In this document: positions 9,706-48,976 of the stretch, piece by piece
Layout: every line of letters starts with the position of its first letter
Position numbering within the stretch: position 1 is the stretch's first letter
NCBI RefSeq assembly: GCF_030013205.1
Contig: NZ_CP122648.1
DNA length: 64,000 nt
DNA from: Escherichia coli
Lineage (GTDB): Bacteria > Pseudomonadota > Gammaproteobacteria > Enterobacterales > Enterobacteriaceae
Strand: one strand, 5' to 3'
Notes under the pieces: generated by a model
What the model saw: the letters and a program-made list of their open reading frames with translations, nothing else
Database searches by the model: none
What the model was told of the DNA's origin: nothing
Position numbers and translations under genes: made by a program

Positions 9706-9900
9706 AGAAGTTCCTTACACATAAAAAAACGGCCAACGTCGGAAGACGTCAGCCGCTGCTTTTTATGCATAGACCTCGCCTTCCGGCAAGGTCTCACTTA
9801 CAACAAAAAAGGAATACGTCTGCGTATTCCTTTCGGGTTGCCCGGTGACCGGATGTGGTTTTTCACACATCGTAATGACGATCGACCGGCAATGAAGTTA
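9706..9900 (-). promoter_or_regulatory. alx 5' leader (pH-responsive RNA element / yybP-ykoY-type riboregulatory leader; sRNA SraF locus in E. coli)
   Basis: Long untranslated leader upstream of alx with several hairpins (e.g. GGAATACGCAGACGTATTCC, and GGCCAACGTCGGAAGACGTCAGCCGCTGCTTTTT); assignment from known biology of alx, motif not formally scored. Confidence 0.45.
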
Positions 9901-9987
9901 CTCCCCTTTGCAGGTAACAAAGTATGACAGACCATTCAGTCAGTCAATGGTCTGTTACATACCTTTTACACTGTTTTACTTTGGCAA

Positions 9988-10974
9988 TTATAGTTTTACG
10001 CTATCTGCCGGAAAAATCACCCCAGTCTGGCGGCGGATCTCGGTCAGCAGTTTGGCGGTGATGCGACTGACCGCCAGCCCAGGATGATCCACCAGATGCT
10101 CATCCACCAGGGTAGCGAACAGCTCTGCTTCGTAGAGCATGGTATTAATATGCTGCGGTTGGGTGAGATCCTGCATCTGGCTGCCACGCGGCACAAAACA
10201 CACTTTCTGGCATTCAGACAGTTTTTCAATCACCAGCGATCCCGCTTCGCCCTGAATCTCGCTCGCCAGGACAGAATCACTGACTTTTGAGTGCTGCAAC
10301 GTAACGCTGAAATCACCGTAATCCATCACCACCACGCCGTGGGCATCCACGCCGCTTGCCAGCAAACTGGCGGTTGCCTGCACGCTTTTCGGCTCACCAA
10401 ATAACGCCACCGCCGACGCCAGGCAGTAAAAGCCGATATCCATAATCGAACCGTTAGAGAACGCCGGATTGAAGGTATTGGGATTCTCACCATCCAGGTA
10501 ACGTTGATACCGCGAGGAATACTGGCAATAGTTGAAAAAGACTTTACGCAGTTTGCCGACTTTCGGCAGTGCCTGGCGCAACAAATGAAAGTTCGGCAGG
10601 CTGGCGGTTTTAAATGCCTCAAACAGCACCACCTGATTTTCCCGCGCACAGACAATGGCGGCATCCACTTCCGCCAGATTCGACGCCAGCGGTTTCTCGC
10701 AAATCACATGAATTTTATGGCTAAGGAAAAGTTGTGTCTGGGAAAAGTGCAGGGAATTCGGGCTGGCAATATACACCGCGTCAATGGCATCGCTTTCAGC
10801 CATCGCTTCCAGCGATGTAAACAGATGCTCGACAGAAAAATCATTGGCAAAGTGCTGGGCCTGTTCAAGGCTGCGGGAATATACGGCGGTTAACTTGTAT
10901 TTACCGCTCTCATGGGCGGCCTCGACGAACTGGCGAGTGATCCAGTTCGTACCAATCACAGCGAAACGTATCAT
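9988..10974 (-). CDS. ygjR: Gfo/Idh/MocA-family oxidoreductase YgjR
   Basis: ORF 9988..10992; protein from MIRFAVIGTNWITRQFVEAAHESGKY (Rossmann GxGxxG-type N-terminus), 328 aa. Confidence 0.85.
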   Translation of the reverse strand: MIRFAVIGTNWITRQFVEAAHESGKYKLTAVYSRSLEQAQHFANDFSVEHLFTSLEAMAESDAIDAVYIASPNSLHFSQTQLFLSHKIHVICEKPLASNLAEVDAAIVCARENQVVLFEAFKTASLPNFHLLRQALPKVGKLRKVFFNYCQYSSRYQRYLDGENPNTFNPAFSNGSIMDIGFYCLASAVALFGEPKSVQATASLLASGVDAHGVVVMDYGDFSVTLQHSKVSDSVLASEIQGEAGSLVIEKLSECQKVCFVPRGSQMQDLTQPQHINTMLYEAELFATLVDEHLVDHPGLAVSRITAKLLTEIRRQTGVIFPADSVKL

Positions 10975-33264: not shown

Positions 33265-33317
33265 CTGATATATAAAAAGAAAAAGGCTGACGATTTCTCG
33301 TCAGCCTTTGCTATGTC

Positions 33318-33362
33318 TGGTGGCCCCTGCTGGACTTGAACCAGCGACCAAGCGATTATGAG
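33318..33362 (-). repeat. 45-bp direct repeat of the tRNA ileX 3' end (island att core, yqjH-proximal side)
   Basis: TGGTGGCCCCTGCTGGACTTGAACCAGCGACCAAGCGATTATGAG is identical to 44410..44454 (3' part of ileX); diverges from the tRNA thereafter. Confidence 0.85.
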
Positions 33363-33471
33363 TTGGTTGATAACCCTTTACTTACAGATAATTAGCGATA
33401 CTTTTCAATACCTTAGTATTTTTTAAAACTACTGTATAAATACCTGTATATACCCCAAAATACTTCTTTAC

Positions 33472-33520
33472 GGTATCCTATAGGTATCCTGGAGCAGAAC
33501 AAGCGATTTTCCAGGATACC
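33472..33520. promoter_or_regulatory. Putative integrase arm-type binding sites (GGTATCC repeats)
   Basis: GGTATCCTATAGGTATCCTGG plus inverted CCAGGATACC just upstream of int; near-identical GGTATCCTATAAGTATCCTGG recurs at 44347..44367 at the other island end. Confidence 0.5.
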
Positions 33521-33543
33521 AGATCGCTTGGTGGGGTGTATGA

Positions 33544-34971
33544 GTGAAATTATTCAGATTCTCTAAAGTAAAAATTGCAGAACTGCCAACGCCGGAACAT
33601 GGACAGGTCGAATATGGTGATACGGAGGTTAACGGGCTGCGTGTCCGTGTAGGTTCGTCTGGTGTGAAAAGTTTCTGCATTTCCCGTAAGCGTAACGGAA
33701 AATTTATTCGTGCAACGCTGGGGCGTTTTCCTGATCTGAGCGTGGATAATGCCAGGGCTAAAGCTATGGAACTCCTTGGCGAAGTCGCCACAACGGGGAT
33801 AAATCCGAACATAGCAAAGCGCACTAACAACAAGGCCATGATAACGCTGAGTAAGGCGATTGACGCCTACGTAAAAAATCGTGGCCACCGCCTGAAACCC
33901 GCCACAGAAAAACAGTACCGCAGCATATTACAGAATTATTCCGGTGACTGGATGGCCCATACCCTCGCCAGTATTTCCCGCGAACGGGTGGAACAACGGC
34001 ATAAGGCCATCACTGATGGGGCTGTATGGTTCGGTGCTGATAAAACCACGTTACGGGCTGGGGTTGGTACAGGAAGCAAGGCACAGGCCGATTTATGGGC
34101 GCGTGCGCTACGTGCTGTGTGTCGGTTTGCGCATGATCATTACCGTGATGATGCGGGTAATACTCTTTTACCGGATCCGCCGACTCTGGTACTGAGCACC
34201 AAGCGCCAGTGGCACGGAACGGTAAGAAAAACGGAACGTATCCGCCTGCATGATTTTCCCCGCTGGTTTGCTGCTGTAGCTGCTGTGCGCGACCAGGGCG
34301 AACAGGAAAGGGATGATATAGCGGTGACGGTATGCGATGCCGTGGAAATGGCGCTTTTTACCGGACTGAGGAAATCAGAAATTTTTGGCCTTACGTGGGA
34401 TCGCGTGAATATGGGCGGTCGTTTTTTCTGGATAGACACCACGAAAAACGGGGATCCGCTCGAATTACCGATTACTGATACGTTGCGGGAAATGTTCCAC
34501 CGCCGACTGAAAATAAAAAACGCTGATGATGTTCTGGTGTTTCCTGGTGTGAAGGGAGTGATTCAGGAAACACGGCACATCATAGACCGGATAAGCGCGG
34601 CTACTGTTCCAGAGTCGAACGATGAAATGCTCTCCCCTGTACCATTCAAATGGCACGATGCACGCCGGACGTTCGGAACGGTTGCCGAACTGGTGGGCGT
34701 GGGCAATTACATCCTCAAGCGCCTGATGAATCACCGTACTATGCGAAGTGCTGACGTAACGCAGGGGTATTTACATTTTGGTGCTGATGAACTGCTGGAG
34801 CCAGCGTCACGGATAGAACGGGCAATTCTGGAACATGCCGGGCTGGTGGAGAGTAAAAAATCTATCGATGCGCAATTGCTTTCCGCACTGGAGAGTATGA
34901 GTGACAGTGAGAAACGCGCATTACTATTTAGTATCGTTAATTCAAATGGTGGTTTGAATGTCAGAAAATAA
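33544..34971 (+). CDS. Tyrosine recombinase / P4-type integrase
   Basis: 475-aa ORF (GTG start at 33544); N-terminal arm-binding-like segment (GLRVRVGSSGVKSFCISRKRNGKFIRATLGRFPDLSVDNARAKAMELL) and C-terminal catalytic region with H-x-x-R and Tyr (WHDARRTFGT...TQGYLHF). Confidence 0.85.
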   Translation: MKLFRFSKVKIAELPTPEHGQVEYGDTEVNGLRVRVGSSGVKSFCISRKRNGKFIRATLGRFPDLSVDNARAKAMELLGEVATTGINPNIAKRTNNKAMITLSKAIDAYVKNRGHRLKPATEKQYRSILQNYSGDWMAHTLASISRERVEQRHKAITDGAVWFGADKTTLRAGVGTGSKAQADLWARALRAVCRFAHDHYRDDAGNTLLPDPPTLVLSTKRQWHGTVRKTERIRLHDFPRWFAAVAAVRDQGEQERDDIAVTVCDAVEMALFTGLRKSEIFGLTWDRVNMGGRFFWIDTTKNGDPLELPITDTLREMFHRRLKIKNADDVLVFPGVKGVIQETRHIIDRISAATVPESNDEMLSPVPFKWHDARRTFGTVAELVGVGNYILKRLMNHRTMRSADVTQGYLHFGADELLEPASRIERAILEHAGLVESKKSIDAQLLSALESMSDSEKRALLFSIVNSNGGLNVRK

Positions 34972-35644
34972 AATCATTGCTGCAATAGAATTTGACCATA
35001 ATGATGCGAAGGATATGAATACTATTGCAGATTATATTAGAGATGAACTGGCGTCTTCTTTTGTAAAAAAAACGATATGCGATATGGCAAATATCACACC
35101 ATCTAAAATGTCTCTGGAGGAGAGATTATCATTATCGTCAGAGATAGAAAATAAGGATTTAAAGGTTAATATTTCTGTATGTGCCGGATATGGAGATGAT
35201 TTTGATAAAAAATTTAATAGTGCATATTCAGAATTCAATGATATTTTGAAAGCTGCCATTATATTTGAAGTTCTTGGTTTCAACAGACTTGCAGATCAGT
35301 TACGTGAAAGATATGCGATTTTAGTGTCGGAGAATTTATTAAAATCAGTACGTGATATAGCTAATGTAAAGAAAATTATCAGTAAAGACCGTAGTAAAGC
35401 AAAGAAAGGAAAAACAAACAGGCATAAATCAACAGCGTTATCTATAGCTTGTAACACTTGGAAAAAATACCCTAATGCCAGTTTACCCGGGCTATCCGCA
35501 GAGATATACGCGCACTTACGCAATAAATGGAATGATGTCCCTGTAGTTGGGACTATAGAGAGATGGCTTAAGGAGTCGGGGATGAATCCAAAATCCCCGC
35601 AAAAAAACAGGGATTTTAAGTTAGTTATTGGAGACAAAGAATAA
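34958..35644 (+). CDS. Hypothetical protein, AT-rich cargo gene (no family recognised)
   Basis: 228-aa ORF MSENKIIAAIEFDHNDAKDMNTIADYIRDE...; start overlaps int stop; markedly AT-rich by eye compared with the rest of the island; Lys-rich central segment. Confidence 0.55.
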   Translation: MSENKIIAAIEFDHNDAKDMNTIADYIRDELASSFVKKTICDMANITPSKMSLEERLSLSSEIENKDLKVNISVCAGYGDDFDKKFNSAYSEFNDILKAAIIFEVLGFNRLADQLRERYAILVSENLLKSVRDIANVKKIISKDRSKAKKGKTNRHKSTALSIACNTWKKYPNASLPGLSAEIYAHLRNKWNDVPVVGTIERWLKESGMNPKSPQKNRDFKLVIGDKE

Positions 35645-35776
35645 ATCCAGTTTTATCCTCTGTAATCCAGATTTCAGCCATGTAAACCAGATATGCGATT
35701 TTGTATCTGGTTTTCCTGTCTTCAAGACTTCCCCATCGCTAAATAACGTATACCTGTTCTTAATCAGAAGTATACG

Positions 35777-35974
35777 GTGATACTCATGCATTTAGAAAAG
35801 ATGACCCGCAAAGAAGCTGCCGAGCATTTGGGGGTAAGTGTCCAGACTCTTGCTAACTGGGCGTGTACTGGCAAGGTAAAAATCCCTTTTCATAAGCTGG
35901 GGCGCAAAGTGCTGTATATGCGCACTGATCTCGATGCTTATCTTGCATCCACTCGCAGAACGCAGACGGTGTAA
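35777..35974 (+). CDS. Excisionase/AlpA-type helix-turn-helix DNA-binding protein
   Basis: MTRKEAAEHLGVSVQTLANWACTGKVKIPFHKLGRKVLYMRTDLDAYLAS fits the excisionase-family HTH pattern; three candidate starts (GTG 35777, ATG 35786, ATG 35801). Confidence 0.7.
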   Translation: MILMHLEKMTRKEAAEHLGVSVQTLANWACTGKVKIPFHKLGRKVLYMRTDLDAYLASTRRTQTV

Positions 35975-36115
35975 GGGGGGAGTGATGGCACATAAAACAA
36001 AGGCGACCGCAAAAGGGTCGCCAGTGGGAACAAGGGAAAACAAAAGCATCACCAACAATGCCACATTTGCGGCTGGTGGGCAATGTGATCAGTGTGCTGG
36101 CTTGCTGGTTAGCTG

Positions 36116-36298
36116 TCAGCCTTTGGGTTCTATGCCTTCTTTGCGTAGCTTATCACGACAAGCATTTTTTACCCATGAGCTGAAATTACCAGGCCCTGCA
36201 ACTTCGTTAATTTGTTGCAACAATGTGTCTTCGAAGCGGATGTTTTTCTTTGTGCTGCCGGAGCGATCAAATTTTGGTTTCACATTTTCTTCTTGCAT
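36116..36298 (-). CDS. Putative ribbon-helix-helix (Arc/CopG-like) small regulator
   Basis: 60-aa ORF; segment KKNIRFEDTLLQQINEVAGPGNFSSWVKNACRDKLRKE fits a beta-strand/helix/Gly-turn/helix RHH pattern; start abuts palindrome TGGTACGTACCA; weak RBS. Confidence 0.4.
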   Translation of the reverse strand: MQEENVKPKFDRSGSTKKNIRFEDTLLQQINEVAGPGNFSSWVKNACRDKLRKEGIEPKG

Positions 36299-36343
36299 TG
36301 GTACGTACCATCGTTATAAACTGAAATCAAATGGTACGTACCA
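36299..36343. promoter_or_regulatory. Pair of identical 12-bp perfect palindromes TGGTACGTACCA (candidate operators)
   Basis: Copies at 36299..36310 and 36332..36343, 33 bp centre-to-centre, in the spacer between divergent small genes. Confidence 0.5.
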
Positions 36344-36443
36344 CATTAAAAATACGCAACCATTAAATACAGCGAAGCCCGGCAGTGCGGGAACACTAAC
36401 CGGGCTTCTAACCACCAACGATAGAAAGCGTATCGAGGTAGCT

Positions 36444-36647
36444 ATGAGAAATCATACCACACACCCGCAAGGGCGGGACTCGCACGACCTGAATAAATAC
36501 ATCTGGCGTTTTATCGCCCTGAGCACCGCACAACCGCGCGTGATTCACATCGTGGCCACCAGCGAACAGGAAGCACGCCAGCAATCCCCGGCTGGCTGCG
36601 TGATGGTATTCGCCGCCCGTATTCGTCAGGGGGTGTGCCATGCCTGA
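36444..36647 (+). CDS. Hypothetical small protein (68 aa)
   Basis: ATG at 36444 preceded by GAGGT RBS; MRNHTTHPQGRDSHDLNKYIWRFIALSTAQPRVIHIVATSEQEARQQSPAGCVMVFAARIRQGVCHA; stop overlaps next start. Confidence 0.5.
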   Translation: MRNHTTHPQGRDSHDLNKYIWRFIALSTAQPRVIHIVATSEQEARQQSPAGCVMVFAARIRQGVCHA

Positions 36648-36960
36648 TATGTCAAATTACCAGTACCTGATTAATCCGCATTTTAACTGTGAGCATGATA
36701 TTGCTAAAAAGGTTTATTCCGCTGCGGATGGGGCTACTGACAATATATCAATGGGTATTGCGTCAATTGGTAGCCTGATGTGGCATGCGTCAGAAAATGA
36801 GGACTATGACGAAAAGGCTATGCGCATTGATATGGGTAATATCGGTTTGTTACTGGCAATGCTTGGGCAGTTTGATATTTCGTTACGGTGCACCATTGAA
36901 AATGCCACAGATGCATTAAATGCCATAAAGAAAGCGAATACTGATTCAAATCGGGGATAA
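36640..36960 (+). CDS. Hypothetical protein (106 aa)
   Basis: ORF with start overlapping upstream stop (translational coupling), part of a same-strand chain leading to the primase gene. Confidence 0.5.
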   Translation: MPDMSNYQYLINPHFNCEHDIAKKVYSAADGATDNISMGIASIGSLMWHASENEDYDEKAMRIDMGNIGLLLAMLGQFDISLRCTIENATDALNAIKKANTDSNRG

Positions 36961-36966
36961 ATAATC

Positions 36967-37266
36967 ATGAGAACATATTTATCTGGCTTGACTGCCAGCG
37001 GTTATGCACACCCCAAAATTATCCCCGGCGCTATTTATCTGGATAAGAACGGTAACAGAGTAACGGTAAAAGAACTGATGTTTGACCGTGTGTATTTTAT
37101 TCGTGATGGCTATTCATTTCATAGTTCGCTGAACGTGGAGATCTTTATTAGCAGATTCAGGCGGGAAATCCCGCTTTCCAGAAATAACCATGTGTCATGT
37201 ATGGATGTTGATAAAAAACTACAGGAACTGAAAAACATGATTGCCGCGTGGAGAGAGCAGAAATGA
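36967..37266 (+). CDS. Hypothetical protein (99 aa)
   Basis: ORF immediately after previous gene; stop overlaps primase start. Confidence 0.5.
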   Translation: MRTYLSGLTASGYAHPKIIPGAIYLDKNGNRVTVKELMFDRVYFIRDGYSFHSSLNVEIFISRFRREIPLSRNNHVSCMDVDKKLQELKNMIAAWREQK

Positions 37267-39080
37267 AAAAAGCGCCAAATTTAAAACACCAGCCGCGTGA
37301 CAAAATGACGGAAGTCATCATTTTTGCGGGTAGTGATGCGTGGGCACATGCGAAACAGTGGCAGGAACAGGACGGGCGACTGGCTGGCGATAACGTGCCA
37401 CCTGTCTGGCTTGGAGAGCAACAACTTGCCGAACTGGACAACCTGCAAATCGTACCGGACGGACGCTATCGCGTGCGTCTCTATCAGGCGGGGTTATTGC
37501 GTCCGGGGCTTGTTAATACCATCGGGCAGAAACTGGCAGTGGCAGGTGTCAGGGATGCTGATTATTACCCTGAAGGAATGCACAGCCAGAAACGGGAGAA
37601 CTGGCGCGAATATCTGGAACGTGAACGGGCAGAGCAGGCGGAAAAGAAAAAGGTAGTTGAACTGCCTGTAAAGAAAAAAGAGCGGGTAAAAGACGATAAC
37701 GCTTCATCACTGGCGCTTAACCAGATGGGAGCAAGTCAACGCGGCGAAGTTCTCCTGGCACATTATGGCGGTGAACTGGCGATTCATGCTGACTCTGACA
37801 CTGTTCACCATTACAACGGCGTTGTATGGGAGCCAGTACAGGATAAAGAATTACAGCGAGCTATGGCACAGATTTTCATTGATGCGGAGATCAGCTATTC
37901 GCAGAACGCCATTAAATCGGCGGTCGATACCATGAAGTTAAGTTTGCCTGTAATGGGGAATACAGCCCGTAACCTGATTGGATTCAGTAACGGGGTATTT
38001 GATACCAGAACAGGTAATTTTCGGGAGCATAACAAAAACGACTGGTTGTTAATTGCCAGTGAATTACCTTTCAGCCCACCAGCAGAGGGGGAAACGCTGG
38101 CAACACATGCGCCGAATTTCTGGAAGTGGTTACGCCGTTCGGTGGCTGAGAATGACCGCAAGGCGGATCGCGTACTGGCTGCATTATTCATGGTGCTGGC
38201 GAACCGGTACGACTGGCAGTTATTCATTGAGGTAACAGGTCCAGGGGGAAGTGGTAAAAGCGTGATGGCGGAGATTTGCACCATGCTGGCGGGTAAGGCC
38301 AACACAGTATCGGCAAGCATGAAGGCGCTGGAAGATGCAAGGGAACGCGCGTTAGTGGTTGGCTTTTCGCTGATTATCATGCCGGATATGACCCGCTACG
38401 CTGGTGATGGGGCAGGAATTAAGGCCATTACAGGCGGTGACAAGGTGGCAATTGACCCGAAACACAAAGCCCCCTACTCAACGCGTATTCCGGCAGTAGT
38501 GCTGGCGGTTAACAATAACGCCATGTCATTCAGTGACCGCAGCGGGGGGATCTCACGTCGTCGGGTGATATTCAATTTTTCGGAAGTTGTACCGGAGAAC
38601 GAACGCGATCCAATGCTGGCGGAAAAAATAGAAGGTGAGCTGGCGGTAGTGATTCGCCATCTGCTTACACGGTTTGCTGACCAGGACGAAGCCAGACGCC
38701 TGTTATATGAGCAGCAGAAATCTGAAGAAGCACTGGCGATAAAGCGAGAGGGGGATTCGCTGGTGGACTTCTGCGGCTATCTCATGGCGTCGGTAATGTG
38801 TGATGGCCTGTTAGTGGGTAATGCTGAAATTGTGCCATTCAGCCCACGCAGGTATCTCTATCATGCCTATCTGGCTTATATGAGGGCACATGGGTTTGGT
38901 AAACCTGTAACACTGACGCGCTTCGGTAAAGATATGCCGGGGGCAATGGCGGAATATGGCAGGGAGTATATGAAACGGAAAACGAAGCACGGTTTGCGTT
39001 CAAACGTGACACTGACGGAGGAATCAGAAGACTGGATGCCATCATGTGTATCGGTCACTAATGACGATAGCAAAAATTAA
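37263..39080 (+). CDS. Primase/helicase-type replication protein (P4 alpha-like; D5-type NTPase)
   Basis: ORF 37248..39080; likely ATG at 37263 (MKKAPNLKHQ...); Walker A GPGGSGKS with downstream hydrophobic-D Walker B-like LIIMPD; immediately followed by TGTTCACC iteron array. Confidence 0.8.
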   Translation: MKKAPNLKHQPRDKMTEVIIFAGSDAWAHAKQWQEQDGRLAGDNVPPVWLGEQQLAELDNLQIVPDGRYRVRLYQAGLLRPGLVNTIGQKLAVAGVRDADYYPEGMHSQKRENWREYLERERAEQAEKKKVVELPVKKKERVKDDNASSLALNQMGASQRGEVLLAHYGGELAIHADSDTVHHYNGVVWEPVQDKELQRAMAQIFIDAEISYSQNAIKSAVDTMKLSLPVMGNTARNLIGFSNGVFDTRTGNFREHNKNDWLLIASELPFSPPAEGETLATHAPNFWKWLRRSVAENDRKADRVLAALFMVLANRYDWQLFIEVTGPGGSGKSVMAEICTMLAGKANTVSASMKALEDARERALVVGFSLIIMPDMTRYAGDGAGIKAITGGDKVAIDPKHKAPYSTRIPAVVLAVNNNAMSFSDRSGGISRRRVIFNFSEVVPENERDPMLAEKIEGELAVVIRHLLTRFADQDEARRLLYEQQKSEEALAIKREGDSLVDFCGYLMASVMCDGLLVGNAEIVPFSPRRYLYHAYLAYMRAHGFGKPVTLTRFGKDMPGAMAEYGREYMKRKTKHGLRSNVTLTEESEDWMPSCVSVTNDDSKN

Positions 39081-39093
39081 ACTTATGGAATAA

Positions 39094-39316
39094 CTGTTCA
39101 CCACTGTTCACCCTGTCATAAATATCTTTTGTATCAGTATGTTATAGGGTGAGCAGTTATTTATGAACTGTTCACCAAACTATTCACTGTTCACCTTTTT
39201 GATTGTTTATTGAGCTTCAAGGGTGAACAGTGGTGAACAGTTGGTGAATAGTTTTTGTGAAACTGTTCACCCCTTAACATTATGAATTAAAAGATAAAAT
39301 ATCAAAAGGTGAACAG
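39094..39316. repeat. Iteron array, 9-mer CTGTTCACC in both orientations (candidate satellite replication origin)
   Basis: Forward CTGTTCACC at 39094, 39104, 39168, 39187, 39263; reverse GGTGAACAG at 39222, 39232, 39308; one-mismatch variants at 39148 and 39243; TGTTCACC is the iteron bound by P4 alpha protein at ori/crr. Confidence 0.7.
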
Positions 39317-39367
39317 GTGAAGGGTTAAAACGCAAAAATTTTAATTTACTGCTGTGAGATAAAGCCT

Positions 39368-39613
39368 ATGACAGCGAAGCACACAAAAAAATCACAATCG
39401 CACGCCCTTGATTTGACGGAACACTGGTTAAGGGTGTCGATAAAAATCATCGACCGCAACGCCGGGGAAGGATATGCGAAAGCACATCCCGAACTGATTA
39501 GCTCATTCATGACAACGGCAGCTGCAAACTTTGCCACGCTGACAGAACGGGAGATTGCCGAAGCGGAACAGGTGACAACCATCAACGTTAAAACCGGAGA
39601 GCAGACAGCATGA
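39368..39613 (+). CDS. Hypothetical protein (81 aa)
   Basis: ORF downstream of iterons, stop overlaps next gene start. Confidence 0.45.
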   Translation: MTAKHTKKSQSHALDLTEHWLRVSIKIIDRNAGEGYAKAHPELISSFMTTAAANFATLTEREIAEAEQVTTINVKTGEQTA

Positions 39614-40032
39614 CAGCACAGATAGCGGCTTACGGGCGGCTGGTGGCTGACCCGCAGTTAAAGACCACCAGCAAGGGTACACAAATGACGATGGCGAGTA
39701 TGGCGGTCCCACTTCCGTGCAGCCAGGCAGATGACGGAACGGCGACGATGTGGTTATCCGTCCTGGCGTTTGGCAGACAGGCCGAAGCACTGGCAAAGCA
39801 CCGCAAGGGTGAACTCCTGAGCGTGGCGGGTAACATGCAGGTGAGCCAGTGGACCGGACAGAACGGGGAGACGCGGCAGGGCTGGCAGGTTATCGCAGAC
39901 AGCGTAATCAGTGCGAGAACGGCGCGACCGGGCGGCAAAAAAGGCCAACAGGGGCAGGCTACTGATGCACTGAGCAGAGCAAAACAACAGGCGGGAAATG
40001 ATGATCCGTACGGGGATAACATACCGTTTTAA
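39610..40032 (+). CDS. Single-stranded DNA-binding protein-like (OB fold) with Gly/Gln-rich tail
   Basis: 140-aa ORF; layout (N-terminal OB-fold-like segment, then GGKKGQQGQ..., acidic DDPYGDNIPF C-terminus) resembles SSB; similarity judged by eye. Confidence 0.55.
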   Translation: MTAQIAAYGRLVADPQLKTTSKGTQMTMASMAVPLPCSQADDGTATMWLSVLAFGRQAEALAKHRKGELLSVAGNMQVSQWTGQNGETRQGWQVIADSVISARTARPGGKKGQQGQATDALSRAKQQAGNDDPYGDNIPF

Positions 40033-40046
40033 GCAACGAGTAACAG

Positions 40047-40072
40047 AAGCCGGAGCAATCCGGCTTTTTTCT
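40047..40072 (+). terminator. Rho-independent terminator after SSB-like gene
   Basis: GCCGGAGCAATCCGGC hairpin followed by TTTTTT. Confidence 0.6.
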
Positions 40073-40144
40073 GGGTCCTCCCGGTGTAGTGACCTGCCAC
40101 GGGGCGGGAGCGTCGCGGAAAAAGGCTGGTTTTTGCATTTTCAT
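40073..40144. repeat. 72-bp conserved element, copy A (paired with 42607..42678)
   Basis: GGGTCCTCCCGGTGTAGTGACCTGCCACGGGGCGGGAGCGTCGCGGAAAAAGGCTGGTTTTTGCATTTTCAT; about 67/72 identical to copy B by manual alignment; contains dyad CTCCCGGTG...CCACGGGGCGGGAG. Confidence 0.7.
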
Positions 40145-40330
40145 GGCGGCGGCAGCATGTGTAGTAATTTATTGATAATTAAAAGTTATTTCTGTTTTCA
40201 CCTGTACAATATTTTTTTCTCCCTGTCATTAGACCAGTTTGCAATTAATTGAAATATATAAATAAATTTGTTTTTCACCTGCCAGATGGAGTTGCCTGTG
40301 CAAAACGTGTTCAGATGGCGGGATATTTAT

Positions 40331-40355
40331 GCCGGATTCTCTCCGGCTTTTTTGT
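40331..40355 (+). terminator. Rho-independent terminator between repeat copy A and the capsid operon
   Basis: GCCGGATTCTCTCCGGC hairpin followed by TTTTTT. Confidence 0.55.
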
Positions 40356-40455
40356 GTCTGAATCTGATTAATCTATTTTTATGATAGAAATATGTTTATC
40401 TACCACTTTTATCGATCAATAATGCGCGCAGTTTAGTCAGTAAGAGGAAGTTACT

Positions 40456-40665
40456 GTGAATTGTATTAACGACCTGAACACAGGCGAGGTAAAAGGTGGT
40501 TCCGTTCATCTGGATGCGCAGACCGTTATGCGCCTTAAGCAGTACAGGATCGACCACATAAATCATCATCCTGACCAACCATTACCAGGTGCGGCGCAGA
40601 TTGTCAGACACGCGGTTAACGCGTGGCTTGATAAGAATGGTTTTGCATCTGGGGGGGAGCAATGA
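40456..40665 (+). CDS. Hypothetical small protein (69 aa), translationally coupled to protease-capsid gene
   Basis: GTG start preceded by AAGAGGAAG RBS; stop overlaps start of the 637-aa ORF. Confidence 0.45.
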   Translation: MNCINDLNTGEVKGGSVHLDAQTVMRLKQYRIDHINHHPDQPLPGAAQIVRHAVNAWLDKNGFASGGEQ

Positions 40666-42575
40666 ATCACTGGTACACCATTAAGGCGCTGGGTGTTCGC
40701 GGAGCGGCAGAAATATCCATCTATGAAGAAATTGGCGGCTTCGGTATTACCGCGAAGCAGTTTGCGGAAGACCTGAAAGCCCTGGGCGATGTCTCACATA
40801 TCGACCTGCGGATCCATTCGCCAGGTGGTGACGTGTTTGAAGGCATCGCCATCTATAACCTGTTACGGAATCATCCGGCAGAAATTACGGTTTATATCGA
40901 TGGTGTTGCGGCTTCAATGGCTTCGGTTGTCGCAATGGCTGGCGATCGTGTTGTGATGCCGGAAAACGCCATGATGATGATACATAAGCCGTGGGGTATC
41001 TCTGGCGGAAATGCTGGTGATATGCGTGATTATGCTGATTTGCTGGATAAGGTGGAAACCGTGTTAGTCCCTGCTTATGCCAGAAAAACGGGCAAATCAG
41101 CACAGGAAATTACCGCCATGCTGGAAGATGAAACCTGGATGGACGGGAAAGAATGCCTTAAGCACGGTTTTGCTGATGAATTGTTGCCATCTGTCACAGC
41201 AATGGCGCGAATTGAATCGAAACGCACAGGAGATTTTTCACACATGCCTGAAACCATTAAAGGAATGATTACCCCGCCACAGGGAGCAGCCAATATTGCT
41301 GGTAATGAACAGAAGCGCATCAACGGAATAAGTGAAGTGTTTAGCCTGTTCGGCAGTCGTTACGACGGGATCAAAATGGCGTGCCTGGAGGATGCATCAT
41401 GTACACCGGAGATGGCCCGTGAAAAGTTGTTGAACGAGCTGGGGCGCGAGTCCACGCCATCCAATAAAAATATCCCGACTCATATTTATGCCGGTAACGG
41501 GAACATAACAGGCGATGCAATTCGTCAGGGGCTTTATTCTCGTCTTGGGTATGAACGCCCAGAGCGGGGAAATCCTTACGCGATGATGAGCCTTTTTGAA
41601 ATGGCCCAGGCATCACTAACTGATCGTGGTATCAGTGTTGGCAGTTTTTTAAATCGCTCGCAGGTCGTTAATGCAGCTTTCACACACAGCAGCAGCGATT
41701 TTTCTCATATTCTGGCTGGTGGTGCTGAAAAATCAGTGCTGAAAGGCTGGCAGGACAGCGGCGAAACGTTCCAGAAATGGACGCGTACCGGATCGCTTTC
41801 AAACTTTCATGAAGCAAAGCGCGTTGGTCTGAATGGTTTTTCAAAGCTGGATAAAGTACCGGAAGGTGCGGAATATAAATACATCACCACCAGCGATAAA
41901 GGTGTACCTATTGCGCTGGCCACATACGGTAATATTTTTTCTGTTACCCGTCAGGCCATTATCAACGATGACCTGACCCAGTTAACTACAATCCCCATGG
42001 CGATGGGGCGTGCGGCCGCCAGAACAGTAGGTAATCTGGTTTATCTTCTGTTAACCAGCAACGGCAAATTTACGGATGGTAAAGCGTTATTCCATGCCGA
42101 TCATAAAAATCTTATTGCGAAGGATATGGACATGGTGGGGCTTGATGAAGCCCGTAAGCTGATGCGCCTCCAGGAGGATGCTAACGGCGACTCACTGAAT
42201 ATTACCCCTGCTTTTGTTCTGGTCCCTGCCGCGCTGGAATCTGCCGCGCGTCGCGCCATTCTGTCATCGTCATCAGTCTTTCCGGTTGGTGATGAGAGCA
42301 CTATCAATCAGAACCCCGGCATCATTAACGTGGTGAAAGATATGGCAGAAGTAATTGTTGAGCCACGTCTTGATAAGGCCAATAGCAAGGAATGGTATGT
42401 AGCCGCAGCTAAGGGGATGGACACAATAGAAGTCGCTTATCTTGATGGTATGGATACGCCATATCTTGAGGAGCAGGTGGGCTTTACTGTTGATGGTGTC
42501 GCCTGGAAAGTGCGCATAGATGCAGGTGTCGCGGCCCTCGATTATCGCGGATTACTGAAATCGAGTGGAGCATGA
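40662..42575 (+). CDS. Prohead protease (ClpP/S49-like) fused to a capsid-like C-terminal domain
   Basis: 637-aa ORF; N-terminal IHSPGGDVFEGIAIYN and GVAASMASVVAMAGD resemble the ClpP/S49 serine-protease motifs (cf. lambda gpC DTPGG); C-terminal ~350 aa has no recognised enzyme motif and is interpreted as major capsid by context and composition. Confidence 0.7.
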   Translation: MNHWYTIKALGVRGAAEISIYEEIGGFGITAKQFAEDLKALGDVSHIDLRIHSPGGDVFEGIAIYNLLRNHPAEITVYIDGVAASMASVVAMAGDRVVMPENAMMMIHKPWGISGGNAGDMRDYADLLDKVETVLVPAYARKTGKSAQEITAMLEDETWMDGKECLKHGFADELLPSVTAMARIESKRTGDFSHMPETIKGMITPPQGAANIAGNEQKRINGISEVFSLFGSRYDGIKMACLEDASCTPEMAREKLLNELGRESTPSNKNIPTHIYAGNGNITGDAIRQGLYSRLGYERPERGNPYAMMSLFEMAQASLTDRGISVGSFLNRSQVVNAAFTHSSSDFSHILAGGAEKSVLKGWQDSGETFQKWTRTGSLSNFHEAKRVGLNGFSKLDKVPEGAEYKYITTSDKGVPIALATYGNIFSVTRQAIINDDLTQLTTIPMAMGRAAARTVGNLVYLLLTSNGKFTDGKALFHADHKNLIAKDMDMVGLDEARKLMRLQEDANGDSLNITPAFVLVPAALESAARRAILSSSSVFPVGDESTINQNPGIINVVKDMAEVIVEPRLDKANSKEWYVAAAKGMDTIEVAYLDGMDTPYLEEQVGFTVDGVAWKVRIDAGVAALDYRGLLKSSGA

Positions 42576-42581
42576 CAACAA

Positions 42582-42605
42582 GGGCGGCGACAGCCGCCTT
42601 TTTTA
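42582..42605 (+). terminator. Rho-independent terminator after protease-capsid gene
   Basis: GGCGGCGACAGCCGCC hairpin followed by TTTTTT. Confidence 0.6.
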
Positions 42606-42606
42606 C

Positions 42607-42678
42607 GGGTCCTCCCGGTGGAGTGGTCTGCCACGGGGCGGGAGCGGCGCGGAAAAAGGCTAGTTTTTGCATTTTCAT
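42607..42678. repeat. 72-bp conserved element, copy B
   Basis: GGGTCCTCCCGGTGGAGTGGTCTGCCACGGGGCGGGAGCGGCGCGGAAAAAGGCTAGTTTTTGCATTTTCAT; same terminator-then-element arrangement as copy A. Confidence 0.7.
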
Positions 42679-42831
42679 TCGTCGTCATCATCTTTATATG
42701 ATATTGAATTTTAAGTATTTTTATTTTTGGTATGTTAATTTTGCTTGTTTTATGCTCAACATATAGCGCATTTTTTGACCTCTTCTGAAAGTTGTTCGCA
42801 GGATGCATGTTTAAAACATTCTGGAGCGGGT

Positions 42832-43317
42832 ATGGATCGAGAACTGAAAAATCTGATGCTGAACATTAATCAACTGGCGGCGATAGCGGGAATATGTCGT
42901 CAGACTGCGGCGGCAAGGCTGAAAAACATCCAGCCAGCCGGAGGGCATGACAAGCTGAAACTCTATCGGGTGACTGACATTCTGACCTGTTTTCTTGATC
43001 TTCCCGTTCCGGCATCACTGGAAGAAATGGAGCCACATGACCGTAAGGCCTGGTATCAGTCCGAACGTGAACGCCTCAAGTTCGAACAGGAAACGGCGCA
43101 ACTCATACCCGCCGATGATGTGCGAAAAGAGATGGCTATATGGGGGGAAATCGTAAGCGAGGAACTGGCAAAACTCCCCAATATTCTGGCACGTGATGCC
43201 GGGCTTAAACCGATGGCAGTAAACAGAGTGCAGTCAATTATTGACGATTTGTGTAATCAGATTATCAGCCGGATGGTAAAAAATGACGTAGTGAATGAGG
43301 TCGCAAAACAGGCATGA
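42832..43317 (+). CDS. Terminase small subunit, lambda Nu1-like
   Basis: ORF 42745..43317; likely ATG at 42832 with GGAG RBS; MDRELKNLMLNINQLAAIAGICRQTAAARLKNIQPAGGHDKLKLYRVTDILTCF parallels the Nu1 N-terminal wHTH region (KKQLADIFGASIRTIQNWQEQGMPV...EVLYDSAAVIKWY); comparison from memory. Confidence 0.65.
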   Translation: MDRELKNLMLNINQLAAIAGICRQTAAARLKNIQPAGGHDKLKLYRVTDILTCFLDLPVPASLEEMEPHDRKAWYQSERERLKFEQETAQLIPADDVRKEMAIWGEIVSEELAKLPNILARDAGLKPMAVNRVQSIIDDLCNQIISRMVKNDVVNEVAKQA

Positions 43318-43601
43318 TAATGACCGAATCTGAAATACTGCGATTAATCCGCTGTGCTGGTGGAATCAGCCAGTTGGCTGACGAACAGGCCGCGCAGCCG
43401 GATACAGTCACCGCTGAAAATTACGCGCGTGTGGTGGCTGAGGTGATGCGCCGTGACGGTATTGAGCTTAACGGCGTGGATATGCGCAACATACGAACCA
43501 GAGTTCTTGAGTTGCTGGCATACCGTCGCCGTTCTCAACAACGGAGGGAGAGCGCGAAAAATACTTACCAGTGGAGGAAGCCGGAGCACTTACGGCGGTA
43601 A
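43314..43601 (+). CDS. Hypothetical protein (95 aa)
   Basis: ORF overlapping terS stop by 4 nt; basic C-terminus. Confidence 0.45.
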   Translation: MIMTESEILRLIRCAGGISQLADEQAAQPDTVTAENYARVVAEVMRRDGIELNGVDMRNIRTRVLELLAYRRRSQQRRESAKNTYQWRKPEHLRR

Positions 43602-43618
43602 CTGGTTGATATTATCGA

Positions 43619-43870
43619 AAGTGCAAAAATGCACTTAGCAACTGGTGGCGAGTTGCAGATCTGCAACTCGACTATGAAACTACGGAAACTACCCGTAGTT
43701 TGGGTAGTAAGAGTAACACCCAGATTTTGGGGCTTACTCGCGATACCCAAATAAATGGTATCGGTGGAAGAAATATCGTTTCTCATATGTGAGTACCGAG
43801 GGCGGAATTCCGCCTTCGGTTACTTATTGTGCTCATGCACAGGGAGAGGCGGGTACAAATCTCTGTACCC
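43619..43870. other. Hairpin/palindrome-dense non-coding region at the attR-proximal end of the island
   Basis: At least eight distinct dyads in ~250 bp: AAGTGCAAAAATGCACTT, GAGTTGCAGATCTGCAACTC, AAACTACGG-N7-CCGTAGTTT, TGGGTAGTAAGAGTAACACCCA, CGATACC-N9-GGTATCG, GGCGGAATTCCGCC, TGTGCTCATGCACA, GGGTACA-N6-TGTACCC; no convincing ORF. Confidence 0.6.
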
Positions 43871-44051
43871 TGACGTCTTCCGGACTGCCAGCCCCATCGT
43901 TTTTTTACGCCCGCGAAAAATAAAAATTGTTTGTATGTGAGTATTGTAGCCAGCAAAAGCTCTTTCTTTGGTGGCTTATTGTTTCTAATAGATTTTGGGA
44001 GGTAGAAATGGGAGGCCCAGCGAAAGCTGGGCCGAGCTTGTTACGCTGTCA

Positions 44052-44195
44052 TTACTTCAGCATGATAACTAAAGCTATACATACTAGCACTACGGCTATT
44101 GGGCATAGACCTAAATTGCCAAGTGCTGCGATTAAACCTGTAACGGCAATCACACGTGCAGACAGCAGGTCTGAGCCCTTTCTTAAAGTATCCAT
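44052..44195 (-). CDS. Small hydrophobic peptide (47 aa), candidate membrane peptide of type-I-toxin-like size
   Basis: ATG preceded by GGAGG RBS (ACGGAGGTATCA-ATG); translation MDTLRKGSDLLSARVIAVTGLIAALGNLGLCPIAVVLVCIALVIMLK has polar N-terminus and one predicted TM helix; below the 60-aa track cutoff. Confidence 0.3.
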   Translation of the reverse strand: MDTLRKGSDLLSARVIAVTGLIAALGNLGLCPIAVVLVCIALVIMLK

Positions 44196-44346
44196 TGATA
44201 CCTCCGTCAGGGTTTTTGCCGGTCTCTTGGAGAGTTGGGGGCAAAAGTTCAGACCCGTAGCACTTTCTTGTTCGCAGGTGAACGGCTGCTACGACCCAAC
44301 TGTTCTGTAGGCATGAGCCAATTCTTACTTGTTAATACTTCTCAGA

Positions 44347-44367
44347 GGTATCCTATAAGTATCCTGG
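44347..44367. promoter_or_regulatory. Putative integrase arm-type site, tRNA-proximal side
   Basis: GGTATCCTATAAGTATCCTGG, near-identical to 33472..33492. Confidence 0.45.
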
Positions 44368-44409
44368 TAAAGCAAGATAGTTTGGATACATCTGTAATTC
44401 ATTGAAATC

Positions 44410-44485
44410 TGGTGGCCCCTGCTGGACTTGAACCAGCGACCAAGCGATTATGAGTCGCCTGCTCTAACCACTGAGCTAAGGGGCC
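44410..44485 (-). tRNA. ileX: tRNA-Ile (anticodon CAU, lysidine-modified isoleucine tRNA)
   Basis: Reverse complement reads GGCCCCTTAGCTCAGTGGTTAGAGCAGGCGACTCATAATCGCTTGGTCGCTGGTTCAAGTCCAGCAGGGGCCACCA: 76 nt, CAT anticodon in loop, encoded CCA end; canonical position next to mug. Confidence 0.9.
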
Positions 44486-47230: not shown

Positions 47231-48976
47231 TCACTTTTTCGCCAGCTCCTGGTTTAATGTCCAGAGCTCCAGGCGTTCTTCGTTGCTTAAACCATGCGTG
47301 CGCTCACGAGCGATTAACTCTTCCTGGCGCAGTTCAAGCAGCGAATCAAACATATGGTTGAGTGAGTCGGTGAAGGTTTGCTCAGCAATATTCTTATCTG
47401 CTATATCGTCCCACATCGACAGTTTTTCAAGGGTGGCAGCATTATTTGTACCACGATAGTGCTCTAAAAGTTGCCCGGTGGTCAGACCTGGCTGAGAGAG
47501 ACAAGTGTTGACCAGTTCTCTGAATAAGCCAAGTCCAGGGAGCTTATTTTCATCCAGATTCTCAAGCGGCGGGACCAACGTCGCTAATTCTGGATTTTGC
47601 ACCAGCAACCCTATAAGTATACGCATGGTCGTGCGTTTTAGCTGCGGAACAGGGCGAGAAACGCCGCTCTCTGCCGCTTTTGGCATTAATCGTTCAAGCT
47701 GGCTGTCATCAAGTATGCCTAATTTGTTGCCTAATTCCTGACGAAGATATATTCGCAGCGTTTCGCCCGGCACTTGCGATATCAATGGCAGTGCCAGCGT
47801 ACTCAAACGTGCGCGCCCGTCAGGGGTACTCAGATCAACTTGCGGCATCAGGCTGTTAAACAGAAATGCGGAGAGCGGCATCGCCTGCTCCATCCGCGCT
47901 TCAAACGCTTCTTTACCTTCTTTTCGTACCAGCGTGTCAGGGTCTTCGCCATCCGGCAAAAACATAAAGCGTAGCTGACGACCGTCTGTCATGTAAGGCA
48001 GCGCCGTTTCCAGCGCTCGCCAGGCGGCATCGCGGCCTGCACGGTCGCCGTCATAACAGCAAATGACATTGTTGGTCGCGCGGAACAACAGTTGTATGTG
48101 ATCGGCGGTGGTTGACGTACCTAACGACGCAACGGCGTAATTAATGCCGTATTGCGCCAGCGCCACCACGTCCATATAGCCTTCGACCACAAGCAGACGA
48201 TTGGGTTCAGCGTTATCCTGCTGCGCTTCATAAAGACCGTAAAGCTGGCGGCCTTTATGGAAAATGTCCGTTTCCGGCGAGTTCAGGTATTTGGGGGTAT
48301 CGTTGCCCAGCACGCGTCCGCCAAAACCAATCACCCGACCGCGTTTATCACGAATGGGGAACATCACCCGCTCGCGGAAACGGTCGTAACTGCGCCCCTG
48401 ATCGTTAGTGACCAACATCCCCGCATCAATCAATGACTGGCGATTTTCTGGATTGCCGCCAAACCGCTTCAGGACGTTGTCCCAGCCGGGGGGCGCAAAA
48501 CCAATCGCAAAGCGGGCGATAACCTCGTGGCTTAATCCGCGTTTTTCCAGATACTGGCGCGCAGACGTGGCAACAGGTTGCTGTAAAGATTGTTGGTAAA
48601 ACGTATTCAGACCGTCCATCAACTGATAAAGCGTTTGCCGTTGATGGCGCTCGATCTGGCTGGGGCCGCTACCTGCTTCAAATGGCACTTCAAGATTGTG
48701 CATTGCCGCCAGCTCTTCGACCGTTTCGACGAACTCAAGCTTGTCGTAGTTCATCAGGAAGTCGATCGCGTTGCCGTGCGCGCCACATCCAAAGCAGTGG
48801 TAAAACTGTTTCTCACCGTTAACGGTGAATGATGGGGTTTTCTCGTTGTGGAATGGACAACACGCGTGGAAATTCTTGCCCTGCTTTTTCAGCTTCACAC
48901 GGGCATCGATCAGATCGACGATGTCAGTGCGTGCCAGCAGATCATTAATGAATACGCGTGGGATTCGTCCAGCCAT
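47231..48976 (-). CDS. dnaG: DNA primase DnaG
   Basis: 581-aa ORF with zinc-ribbon N-terminus CPFHNEKTPSFTVNGEKQFYHCFGCGAHGN. Confidence 0.95.
   Translation of the reverse strand: MAGRIPRVFINDLLARTDIVDLIDARVKLKKQGKNFHACCPFHNEKTPSFTVNGEKQFYHCFGCGAHGNAIDFLMNYDKLEFVETVEELAAMHNLEVPFEAGSGPSQIERHQRQTLYQLMDGLNTFYQQSLQQPVATSARQYLEKRGLSHEVIARFAIGFAPPGWDNVLKRFGGNPENRQSLIDAGMLVTNDQGRSYDRFRERVMFPIRDKRGRVIGFGGRVLGNDTPKYLNSPETDIFHKGRQLYGLYEAQQDNAEPNRLLVVEGYMDVVALAQYGINYAVASLGTSTTADHIQLLFRATNNVICCYDGDRAGRDAAWRALETALPYMTDGRQLRFMFLPDGEDPDTLVRKEGKEAFEARMEQAMPLSAFLFNSLMPQVDLSTPDGRARLSTLALPLISQVPGETLRIYLRQELGNKLGILDDSQLERLMPKAAESGVSRPVPQLKRTTMRILIGLLVQNPELATLVPPLENLDENKLPGLGLFRELVNTCLSQPGLTTGQLLEHYRGTNNAATLEKLSMWDDIADKNIAEQTFTDSLNHMFDSLLELRQEELIARERTHGLSNEERLELWTLNQELAKK

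Follow-up and report, generated by a model that had tools for sequence, protein, structure and literature searches.

The question raised by this locus is where a phage satellite of Escherichia coli carries the cos site upstream of its terminase gene, and whether a sequence resembling the cosN of phage lambda is part of it. The window, by which we mean the whole 64,000-nucleotide stretch that was analysed, is E. coli chromosome, identical at 100% to strain ETEC4079 in the segment compared, and the satellite found in it has a fused protease-capsid gene followed by a gene for a homologue of the small terminase subunit (TerS). An earlier note on this DNA had drawn attention to a 12-mer between these two genes, GGGCGGCGACAG, had compared it with lambda cosN, GGGCGGCGACCT, and had proposed that, if the resemblance is real, the satellite would carry a cos with an altered cohesive end next to its own cosB-like region. 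Drawing on homology, conservation, spacing and coincidence with the ends of phage records, we consider it very probable that the flagged 12-mer belongs to the terminator of the capsid gene, and that a real cos of the lambda family, here called cos B, lies just downstream of it at 42607-42831, with cosQ, cosN and a cosB of the mEp460 type, followed by the TerS gene.

The flagged 12-mer had been described accurately. GGGCGGCGACAG occurs once in the window (42582-42593, + strand), starts 250 nt before the ATG of the TerS gene at 42832, and is identical to lambda cosN at 10 of 12 positions. The match and the position ~250 bp upstream of the TerS gene are also what favours this 12-mer as cosN itself, cut by terminase to an altered cohesive end, with the downstream repeat known as copy B serving as cosB. 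However, a match of this quality was found at chance frequency, since 12-mers with at most two mismatches from lambda cosN numbered 6 in the window and 6.13 ± 2.6 in shuffled sequence. In addition, no GGGTCC, i.e., no cosQ, was found in positions 42540-42581 upstream of the 12-mer; its flanks are CAA and CCGCC, unlike the ACG and CGCGG that border lambda cosN; and its twofold symmetry covers 6 of 22 positions, as compared with 10 in lambda. With these observations, and those on relatives and record ends given below, we regard GGGCGGCGACAG as a hardly credible candidate for cosN.

It had already been suspected that the 12-mer is part of a terminator hairpin and that its resemblance to cosN might be coincidental, and this suspicion was borne out. 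A promoter and terminator scan listed the palindrome on the - strand and did not list a + strand hairpin at 42583, and the hairpin was therefore folded directly. The predicted fold, at -16.7 kcal/mol (z = -2.8), has a stem of six G-C pairs that begins 8 nt past the TGA of the capsid gene (42573-42575). A GC-rich stem, a short loop that drifts among relatives and a U-run just past the stop codon are the features of a predicted terminator, and the flagged 12-mer, which covers the 5' half of the stem and the loop, is, as judged from its sequence, part of the rho-independent terminator of the capsid gene. That it resembles lambda cosN is a coincidence, a GGCGGC stem being nothing unusual in a terminator.

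Directly after this terminator, a lambda-type arrangement was found. cos B begins 3 nt past the T-run with the heptamer GGGTCCT, which in lambda is cosQ (bp 48473-48479; Wieczorek & Feiss). The cosQ of cos B aligned with the right end of lambda (...ACGGGTCCTTTCCGGTG...TTACG), and it was conserved in satellite and phage loci. The cosN of cos B with its flanks spans 42633-42652, and its 12-mer begins 54 bp downstream of the start of the flagged one. With slashes marking the ends of the 12-mer, the cos B junction ...ACGGGTCCTCCCGGTG..CCACG/GGGCGGGAGCGG/CGCGG aligned with ...ACGGGTCCTTTCCGGTG..TTACG/GGGCGGCGACCT/CGCGG of lambda. Side by side, the junctions read ...ACGGGTCCTTTCCGGTGATCCGACAGGTTACG/GGGCGGCGACCT CGCGGG... 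in lambda, ...GCGGGTCCTTCCGGTGGGGTGGCCTGCCACG/GGGCGGGAGCGT CGCGGA... in phage cdtI, and ...ACGGGTCCTCCCGGTGGAGTGGTCTGCCACG/GGGCGGGAGCGG CGCGGA... in copy B of the island. The frame ACGGGGCGG-N6-CGCGG was found twice in the window, in copy A and in copy B, where 0.02 occurrences were expected. Moreover, cos B showed twofold symmetry at 12 positions over 22 nt (lambda, 10), and the start of its 12-mer lies 196 nt before the TerS ATG, the corresponding distance from the lambda 12-mer to Nu1 being 190 nt. The part of the proposal that stood is a lambda-family cos with an altered cohesive end, ~190 bp upstream of the satellite's own TerS gene; its cosN, however, is GGGCGGGAGCGG at 42636-42647 and not the flagged 12-mer.

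The assignment of copy B, then described as a 72-bp repeat, to the cosB-like region had to be given up. Copy B holds cosQ, cosN and the first ~30 bp rightward, and copies A and B diverge at about +44 from the nick, i.e., at the position of R3 in lambda (PMC9026076); the specificity-determining cosB is predicted to start at this divergence. R-like repeats were sought in the cosB of cos B and none was found, unlike in cos A.

In a search of phage records, the region 5' of the TerS gene was 76-82% identical to the region 5' of terS in mEp460, phi458, PhiR phages and vB_EcoS-569R4, and parts of it also matched cdtI, Ayreon and Stx phages. For the cosB-like region of cos B, the identity to mEp460, phi458 and PhiR phages was 77-82%. 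The phage homology starts at 42600-42605, just past the T-run and at cosQ, and the hairpin lies outside it. The motif TCGTC(G/A)TCATCATC of cos B was common to phages with an island-like TerS DNA-binding domain, and the type of cosB sequence co-varied with this domain. The ends of phage records fall at the downstream site, which again speaks against GGGCGGCGACAG as cosN: the cdtI record begins at the base aligned with 42636, that of mEp460_4F5 begins 5 nt earlier, and that of Hafnia phage yong2 starts directly after the position of the 12-mer. In the record of phage LLS, whose TerS is 54% identical to that of the island, a 5' extended single-strand cohesive site of 12 nt, GGGCGGCGCGCT, is annotated at the homologous position; there, GGGCGGCGCGCT is followed by CGCGGGAAACGGCTAGTTTTT, and in the same place the island reads CGCGGAAAAAGGCTAGTTTTT.

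The two 94-nt repeats, A and B, could also be read not as packaging sites but as two copies of one regulatory element that follows a terminator in each case, for instance the leader or operator of a late operon, and both copies do come immediately behind a terminator, with late-type genes (the capsid operon, TerS) downstream. We judge this very unlikely, because the repeat aligns base for base with the lambda cosQ-cosN junction and with the phage record ends, and because phages carry the block between the lysis genes and terS, which is the place of cos. Furthermore, the homologous block of EcCICFT073, a phage-inducible chromosomal island of E. coli, is an experimentally validated cos (PMC6092414), and no RNA family was found by Rfam at the repeats or at a third site described below (cos3), where the output was tRNA and sub-threshold noise only.

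Conservation of the real cos and of the flagged sequence was compared in 80 IMG/VR loci that encode TerS relatives, taken with 1.5 kb upstream and comprising 35 satellite loci (TerS 88-100% identical) and 45 phage-like ones. The block from cosQ to cosN was kept in 80 of 80 loci, a few of them with single-base variants. Among the satellites, the 12-mer lies 196 nt from the ATG in 33 and 197 nt in one, and in locus L035 one base of the frame is substituted; in the phage-like loci, the distance was 185-186 or 196 nt. The exact flagged 12-mer, in turn, was present in 5 of the 35 satellites, with changes in the loop elsewhere (GATA in 22, TATA in one and GAAA in one) and the stem intact. Five satellites lack the 5' half of the stem (...CAATAGTGACAGTCGCCTTTTTT) because a different gene lies upstream, and in two the terminator of the SSB gene replaces the hairpin because the capsid gene is absent. 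All seven satellites without the capsid-gene hairpin keep cos, and so do the 45 phages, in which no 12-mer with three or fewer mismatches from lambda cosN was found within 120 nt upstream of cosQ. The full-length sister islands of E. coli strains 405 and ST131-751 showed the same pattern of a kept cos and a varying hairpin. As far as these alignments tell, the flagged sequence varies like a terminator and not like a cleavage site, which counts further against it as cosN.

Two of the satellites, L032 and L034, have the order SSB, terminator, cos and TerS, without the 69-amino acid (aa) open reading frame (ORF) and the protease-capsid gene that the window has between these features (40049-42678). 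It is as if the 2.5-kb capsid segment had been deleted by recombination between cos A and cos B, or as if these loci represented the state before its capture. Separately, the ends of the IMG/VR contigs were considered as packaging termini and rejected, as the contigs are mostly provirus predictions or integrated copies.

What cos B has in common with lambda-type cos sites is cosQ, a 12-bp cosN, its flanks, the symmetry, a fixed distance to terS with cosB in between, and the ends of related records. Some points weigh against taking it as the packaging site of the island. The ends of LLS and mEp213 were inferred by their authors, that of LLS by analogy with mEp213 and lambda, and the reads stopped short of the cos ends (PMC12315714). 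The cdtI terminus is taken from the start of the record. For the island studied here, the ends of cos B are predicted, from sequence rather than from the ends of packaged DNA. The island has three cos sites, and a given helper may use another of them than cos B. Finally, the DNA-binding half of the island TerS is identical to that of a phage TerS, and the island protein might not be needed for recognition of cos B. The coordinates of all features are collected in Table 1.

Table 1. Features of the satellite and its cos sites, in positions of the window.
Feature	Position	Strand	Remarks
Whole satellite	33316-44455	+	11,092-bp unit; 48-nt direct repeats 33316-33363 and 44408-44455
Terminator after SSB gene	40049-40070	+	GCCGGA-GCAA-TCCGGC-T6; -17.1 kcal/mol, z -3.5; abuts cos A
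cos A	40073-40118	+	cosQ GGGTCCT 40073-40079; 12-mer GGGCGGGAGCGT 40102-40113; ACG/CGCGG flanks
cdtI-type cosB of cos A	40114-40330	+	Two 39-nt R-like direct repeats ending TTTTCACCTG, 40166-40204 and 40243-40281
ClpP-like prohead protease / major capsid protein fusion	40662-42575	+	Pfam Phage_capsid_4 and CLP_protease; between cos A and cos B
Intrinsic terminator of protease-capsid gene (predicted)	42583-42604	+	GGCGGC (42583-42588), loop GACA, GCCGCC (42593-42598), T6 (42599-42604)
cosQ-like GGGTCCT of cos B	42607-42613	+	29 nt before predicted top-strand nick (lambda 30)
Predicted cosN cohesive-end 12-mer of cos B, GGGCGGGAGCGG	42636-42647	+	Flanks ACG 42633-42635 and CGCGG 42648-42652 identical to lambda
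cosB-like region of cos B, mEp460/phi458 type	42648-42831	+	TCGTCGTCATCATC motif at +44 to +57, equivalent to lambda R3 position
Satellite TerS homologue, 161 aa, DUF1441	42832-43317	+	Pfam DUF1441 1e-35; phrog_141 terminase small subunit 7e-57
Nearly invariant non-coding stretch before cos3	43650-43841	+	Hairpin 43795-43820, -26.8 kcal/mol, z -6.3
cos3, SfI/SfV/SfII/ST64B-type (HNH-associated) cos region	43842-43928	+	10-mer TGCCAGCCCC at 43886-43895

Copy A of the repeat forms a second site of the same type, cos A. Its cosB aligned nearly base for base with cdtI positions 13-190 and is followed by no terS gene, and stretches ~92% identical to cos A adjoin DUF1441 genes in many E. coli prophages. 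cos A was present in 25 of 38 informative close satellite relatives and missing from the other 13; it is also absent from the ST131 island L012, in which the SSB terminator is directly joined to GTGTCTGAATC. In the window, the segment 40071-40353 places cos A and its cdtI-type cosB between two CCGGCTTTTTT terminator tails (40060-40070 and 40343-40353), and cos A behaves as an insertion/deletion cassette. The 12-mers of cos A and cos B differ in their last base, which is T in cos A and G in cos B, both being T in the sister island L011. A molecule cut on the left at cos B and on the right at cos A would anneal with one mismatch. Another sister island, L015, has lambda cosN upstream of its TerS gene and an inverted second cos at 10889-10934 (- strand) with a GGGCGGGAGCAT-type 12-mer; with these two 12-mer types in L015, cosN variants are therefore mixed within one island elsewhere in the family too.

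The third site, cos3, resembles the cos ends in the records of SfV, SfI, SfII, SfIV and ST64B, with 84-91% identity along as many as 87 bp. The cohesive end of SfI, 5'-TGCCCGCCCC-3', was measured by run-off sequencing (PMC3636060), and 9 of its 10 bases are found in the 10-mer of the island (TGCCAGCCCC) and 10 of 10 in that of L011. Along with the sequence before it, cos3 forms a stretch of ~280 bp (43650-43928) that is near-invariant in the sister islands L011, L012, L015 and L016, across three different packaging modules, and that contains the palindrome GAGTTGCAGATCTGCAACTC, ACTACGG/ACTACCCGTAG repeats and a hairpin, followed by the SfV-type cos. Of these, L015 is of the lambda type and carries genes for a gpE-like capsid protein, a gpD-like protein and a 180-aa TerS, and L016, which is capsid-forming, occupies the same tRNA/mug site. 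Of 5426 complete E. coli genomes, 310 have the cos3 region and 163 the capsid-TerS module. The capsid-forming lineage may have its packaging site in positions 43650-43928. The island has no HNH, TerS or TerL of the SfI/SfV type, and use of cos3 would therefore need a terminase from outside.

The presence of these sites raises the alternative that cos B is a conserved passenger, or the relic of a captured cos-terS cassette, and that packaging proceeds from cos A, with the TerS of a cdtI-type helper, or from cos3, with an HNH-type terminase supplied by an SfV-like phage or by a co-resident capsid-forming island. In its favour, transfer of EcCICFT073 by lambda and phi80 needs only one (cos1) of its two cos sites (PMC6092414); cos3 and the 190 bp upstream of it are near-invariant over three island types, including the capsid-forming island at the same tRNA; and the ~92% identity noted for cos A is to the cos of many resident prophages. 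On the other hand, the frame of cos B and its spacing of ~196 nt from the TerS gene are kept in 34 of the 35 satellites, the remaining one having the single frame substitution; cos A is the site that is missing from 13 of 38 relatives; and the R3-equivalent motif of cos B fits the TerS type encoded by the island. We consider this alternative unlikely, and as it concerns which real cos serves, it would not rescue the flagged 12-mer.

Returning to cos B as the real cos upstream of TerS, we examined the protein encoded after it. It had been called Nu1-like, and this proved to be the wrong family: the homologue belongs to Pfam DUF1441 and phrog_141, not to Phage_Nu1. In sequence searches against PDB, neither the island TerS nor the 180-aa TerS of L015 gave a match to Nu1 or RppC, and NCBIfam had no family for TerS or the small ORFs. 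The gene after cos was also checked for Rpp, the product found at this place in EcCICFT073, which redirects the TerS of the helper to the cos of the island, and a full-length DUF1441 TerS homologue was found instead. The island TerS is 64-71% identical to the TerS of the mEp460 group and has 161 aa, as compared with 164 aa in the phages. Over residues 1-94 it does not differ from the TerS encoded on L052, a phage contig of 50 kb, with a break at about residue 95 in the comparison with L052-L055 and L095. From residue 95 on, the phage versions agree with one another and the satellite version differs, and the acidic tail DDEEELQQEE is lost. The C-terminal part of lambda TerS binds TerL (PMC9026076), and by analogy the island TerS, with its satellite-specific C-terminus, may therefore differ from that of the helper in how it engages TerL or the helper TerS rather than in the DNA bound.

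Along its whole length, the protease-capsid fusion shows 55-57% identity to the fusions of Stx, mEp460, mEp043/213, LLS and Ayreon phages, which are lambdoid phages with fused heads of the Gifsy-2 type. This group also carries DUF1441 TerS and a cos resembling cos B, and its members are the likely helpers of the island and the likely source of the cassette. For cleavage, the roles of TerS and the helper range, we infer the following course. A helper with Gifsy-2-type heads (mEp460, cdtI, Stx1, LLS) would induce the island; TerS, be it that of the island, that of the helper or a mixed oligomer, would bind cosB and place the helper TerL, with nicks staggered by 12 bp at cosN; the DNA would then be packaged rightward, from TerS through att and int onwards, and, when the head has been filled, packaging would stop at a cosQ-cosN further downstream. 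Four island units amount to 44,368 bp and the helper genomes to 42.9-47.0 kb, so that packaging of multimers in full-size heads is possible, as has been reported for EcCICFT073 (PMC6092414).

cos B, cos A and cos3 together probably widen the range of helpers that can be used. A more elaborate scheme, which we put forward tentatively as a possibility with the odds against it, has the island holding packaging sites for several terminases: cos B for its own TerS and that of mEp460-type phages, cos A for the cdtI type, and cos3 for the HNH-dependent SfI/SfV type, with the island TerS acting on TerL or on helper TerS oligomers. If all three cos sites work, terminases of three classes could package one 11-kb element, among them the terminase of a co-resident capsid-forming island, i.e., a satellite on a satellite. 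If the action of TerS on TerL or on helper TerS oligomers is true, it would be a packaging interference unlike that of Rpp.

The satellite as a whole lies to the left of mug, rpoD and dnaG, which follow a tRNA gene with a CAT anticodon (44410-44485); the 48-nt repeats that bound it are the 3' part of this tRNA, its insertion site. The + strand carries every recognisable gene of the island, in the order integrase, a 65-aa helix-turn-helix ORF, an Icd-like region, a DUF4222 protein, a D5-type primase, CTGTTCACC iterons, an 81-aa ORF, SSB, a 69-aa ORF, the ClpP-protease/major-capsid fusion, the 161-aa TerS homologue, a 95-aa ORF and ~800 bp of non-coding DNA. The helix-turn-helix ORF (35777-35974) is at the place expected for an AlpA-type activator and is, by its position, a candidate for it; a helix-turn-helix regulator is annotated at the same position in sister islands. 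The iterons after the primase, in direct and inverted orientation (39079-39277), are likely the replication origin of the island. An integrase with an att site, a length in the range of ~10-15 kb, a primase with iterons, unidirectional genes and an absence of lysis and tail genes were all found, and on its gene content the element can be classed as a Gram-negative phage-inducible chromosomal island of the EcCICFT073 lineage.

Several side observations were made on the island and its relatives. A 34-nt direct repeat, 85% identical, lies just inside both island ends (33459-33492 and 44334-44367; ...GGTATCCTATA(G/A)GTATCCTGG) and may represent arm-type binding sites of the integrase. The sequence TAATCTATTTTTATGATAGAAATATG at 40369-40394, ~60 nt 5' of the 69-aa ORF just before the capsid gene, was kept in 50 of 50 informative fetched relatives, down to 53% protein identity, which makes it a candidate for the promoter or operator from which the capsid operon is controlled. 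A 47-aa ORF on the - strand (44052-44195), between cos3 and att, has a strongly hydrophobic C-terminal half (...GLIAALGNLGLCPIAVVLVCIALVIMLK); it may encode a small membrane peptide or toxin, or be a chance ORF. A sub-threshold Rfam match to the SymR antitoxin RNA at 36371-36443 (- strand; 34.8 bits vs. a gathering score of 61, E = 0.0015) is probably noise, and it falls in the Icd-like region, itself conserved (90% identical to EcCICFT073). In L012, the sister island of ST131 strain 751 of E. coli, the capsid gene and cos B are separated by an inserted gene for a tail-assembly protein and a fragment of a tail-protein gene (9851-10551), a further capture of a phage late gene.

As for what these results mean, there is nothing out of the ordinary in the flagged 12-mer, a terminator, and experiments on EcCICFT073 have already demonstrated the kind of cos that adjoins it. 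With the corrected map, the sites on which the choice of mobilising helper phages depends are placed exactly for this family of islands, which occurs in ~3% of complete E. coli genomes, those of enterotoxigenic (ETEC) and ST131 strains included. A third packaging module is thereby added to those known on the EcCICFT073 backbone, made of a fused protease-capsid gene, DUF1441 TerS and a cos of the mEp460/cdtI type, and aimed at the group of phages to which the Stx and Cdt converting phages belong. As many as three cos sites, in two biochemical classes, make the breadth of the helper range a testable hypothesis. In the literature, a full-text search for GGGCGGGAGCG returned unrelated papers only and did not cover the cosN survey of Vahanian et al. 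2017, and a search for cosQ with GGGTCCT returned nothing relevant.

Among the closest known systems is EcCICFT073 (Fillol-Salom 2018, 2019; Murialdo & Feiss 2022), which we located in the CFT073 genome for comparison. Its cos1 and its inverted cos2 are both functional, as established by deletion and plasmid-transfer assays (PMC6092414; PMC6739421). cos1 reads GCCGGAGAAATCCGGC-T7-AT-GGGTCCT...TTACG/GGGCGGCGACCT/CGCGG and lies ~101 nt upstream of rppA. The two islands thus share a hairpin followed by a T-run, cosQ GGGTCCT, cosN and then the gene of a cos-recognition protein, with a capsid homologue upstream; two lambda-type cos sites per island; and 72-92% DNA identity in patches (Icd-like region, DUF4222, primase, SSB, cos and the 95-aa ORF). 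They differ in several respects. The cosN of EcCICFT073 is the GGGCGGCGACCT of lambda, whereas the studied island has GGGCGGGAGCG(G/T). A 144-aa Rpp follows ~101 nt after cosN in the former, and a 161-aa DUF1441 TerS 196 nt after it in the latter. Moreover, cos2 of EcCICFT073 is inverted, whereas cos A is a direct repeat; a gpE-like capsid gene with a gpD-like partner takes the place of the fused ClpP-capsid gene; and the cos3 region is absent from EcCICFT073. As to its kind, cos B is nothing new, being a cos such as phage-inducible chromosomal islands of E. coli, EcCICFT073 among them, are known to have, but in a variant that we did not find described in the literature examined: DUF1441 TerS in place of Rpp, the GGGCGGGAGCG(G/T) end, two types of cosB and a third cos of the HNH type.

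With lambda itself, cos B shares cosQ GGGTCCT, the ACG and CGCGG flanks, a G-rich 12-mer identical at 8 of 12 positions and a terS gene ~190 nt on, and it differs in 4 of the 12 cohesive-end bases, in an unrelated cosB sequence and in having a DUF1441 TerS where lambda has Phage_Nu1. The phages mEp460, phi458, cdtI, Ayreon, LLS/mEp213 and Stx1/Stx2 resemble the island in the cosQ-cosN block, the TerS family and the kind of head genes, and these lambdoid phages with Gifsy-2-type heads also have the conserved CGCGG(A/G)AA(A/C)(A/C)GGCTAGTTTTT to the right of cosN. In these phages, cos comes after the lysis genes and has no terminator hairpin before it; the island has two cos copies with two cosB types and is without TerL and portal genes.

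In SaPI-type satellites that encode a TerS (SaPI1, SaPIbov1) and in cos SaPIs with a capsid homologue (SaPIbov5 Ccm), in part according to the summary in the preprint on capsid-forming islands, a satellite TerS or a copied helper cos likewise steers the helper TerL, and a capsid homologue is carried. These islands differ in having Gram-positive hosts and unrelated sequences, and the TerS-encoding ones package by the headful (pac) mode. Last, the capsid-forming islands (cf-PICI; EcCIEDL933; Alqurainy et al.) are represented among the sister islands by L016, which shares the replication backbone, the 95-aa ORF and cos3 with the studied island, almost identical. L016 has a portal, a connector, HNH, TerL and a P27-type TerS, all of which are absent from the studied island, where the protease-capsid fusion and TerS are the only head and packaging genes; the studied island is therefore unable to build and fill capsids alone, and is not of the capsid-forming kind.

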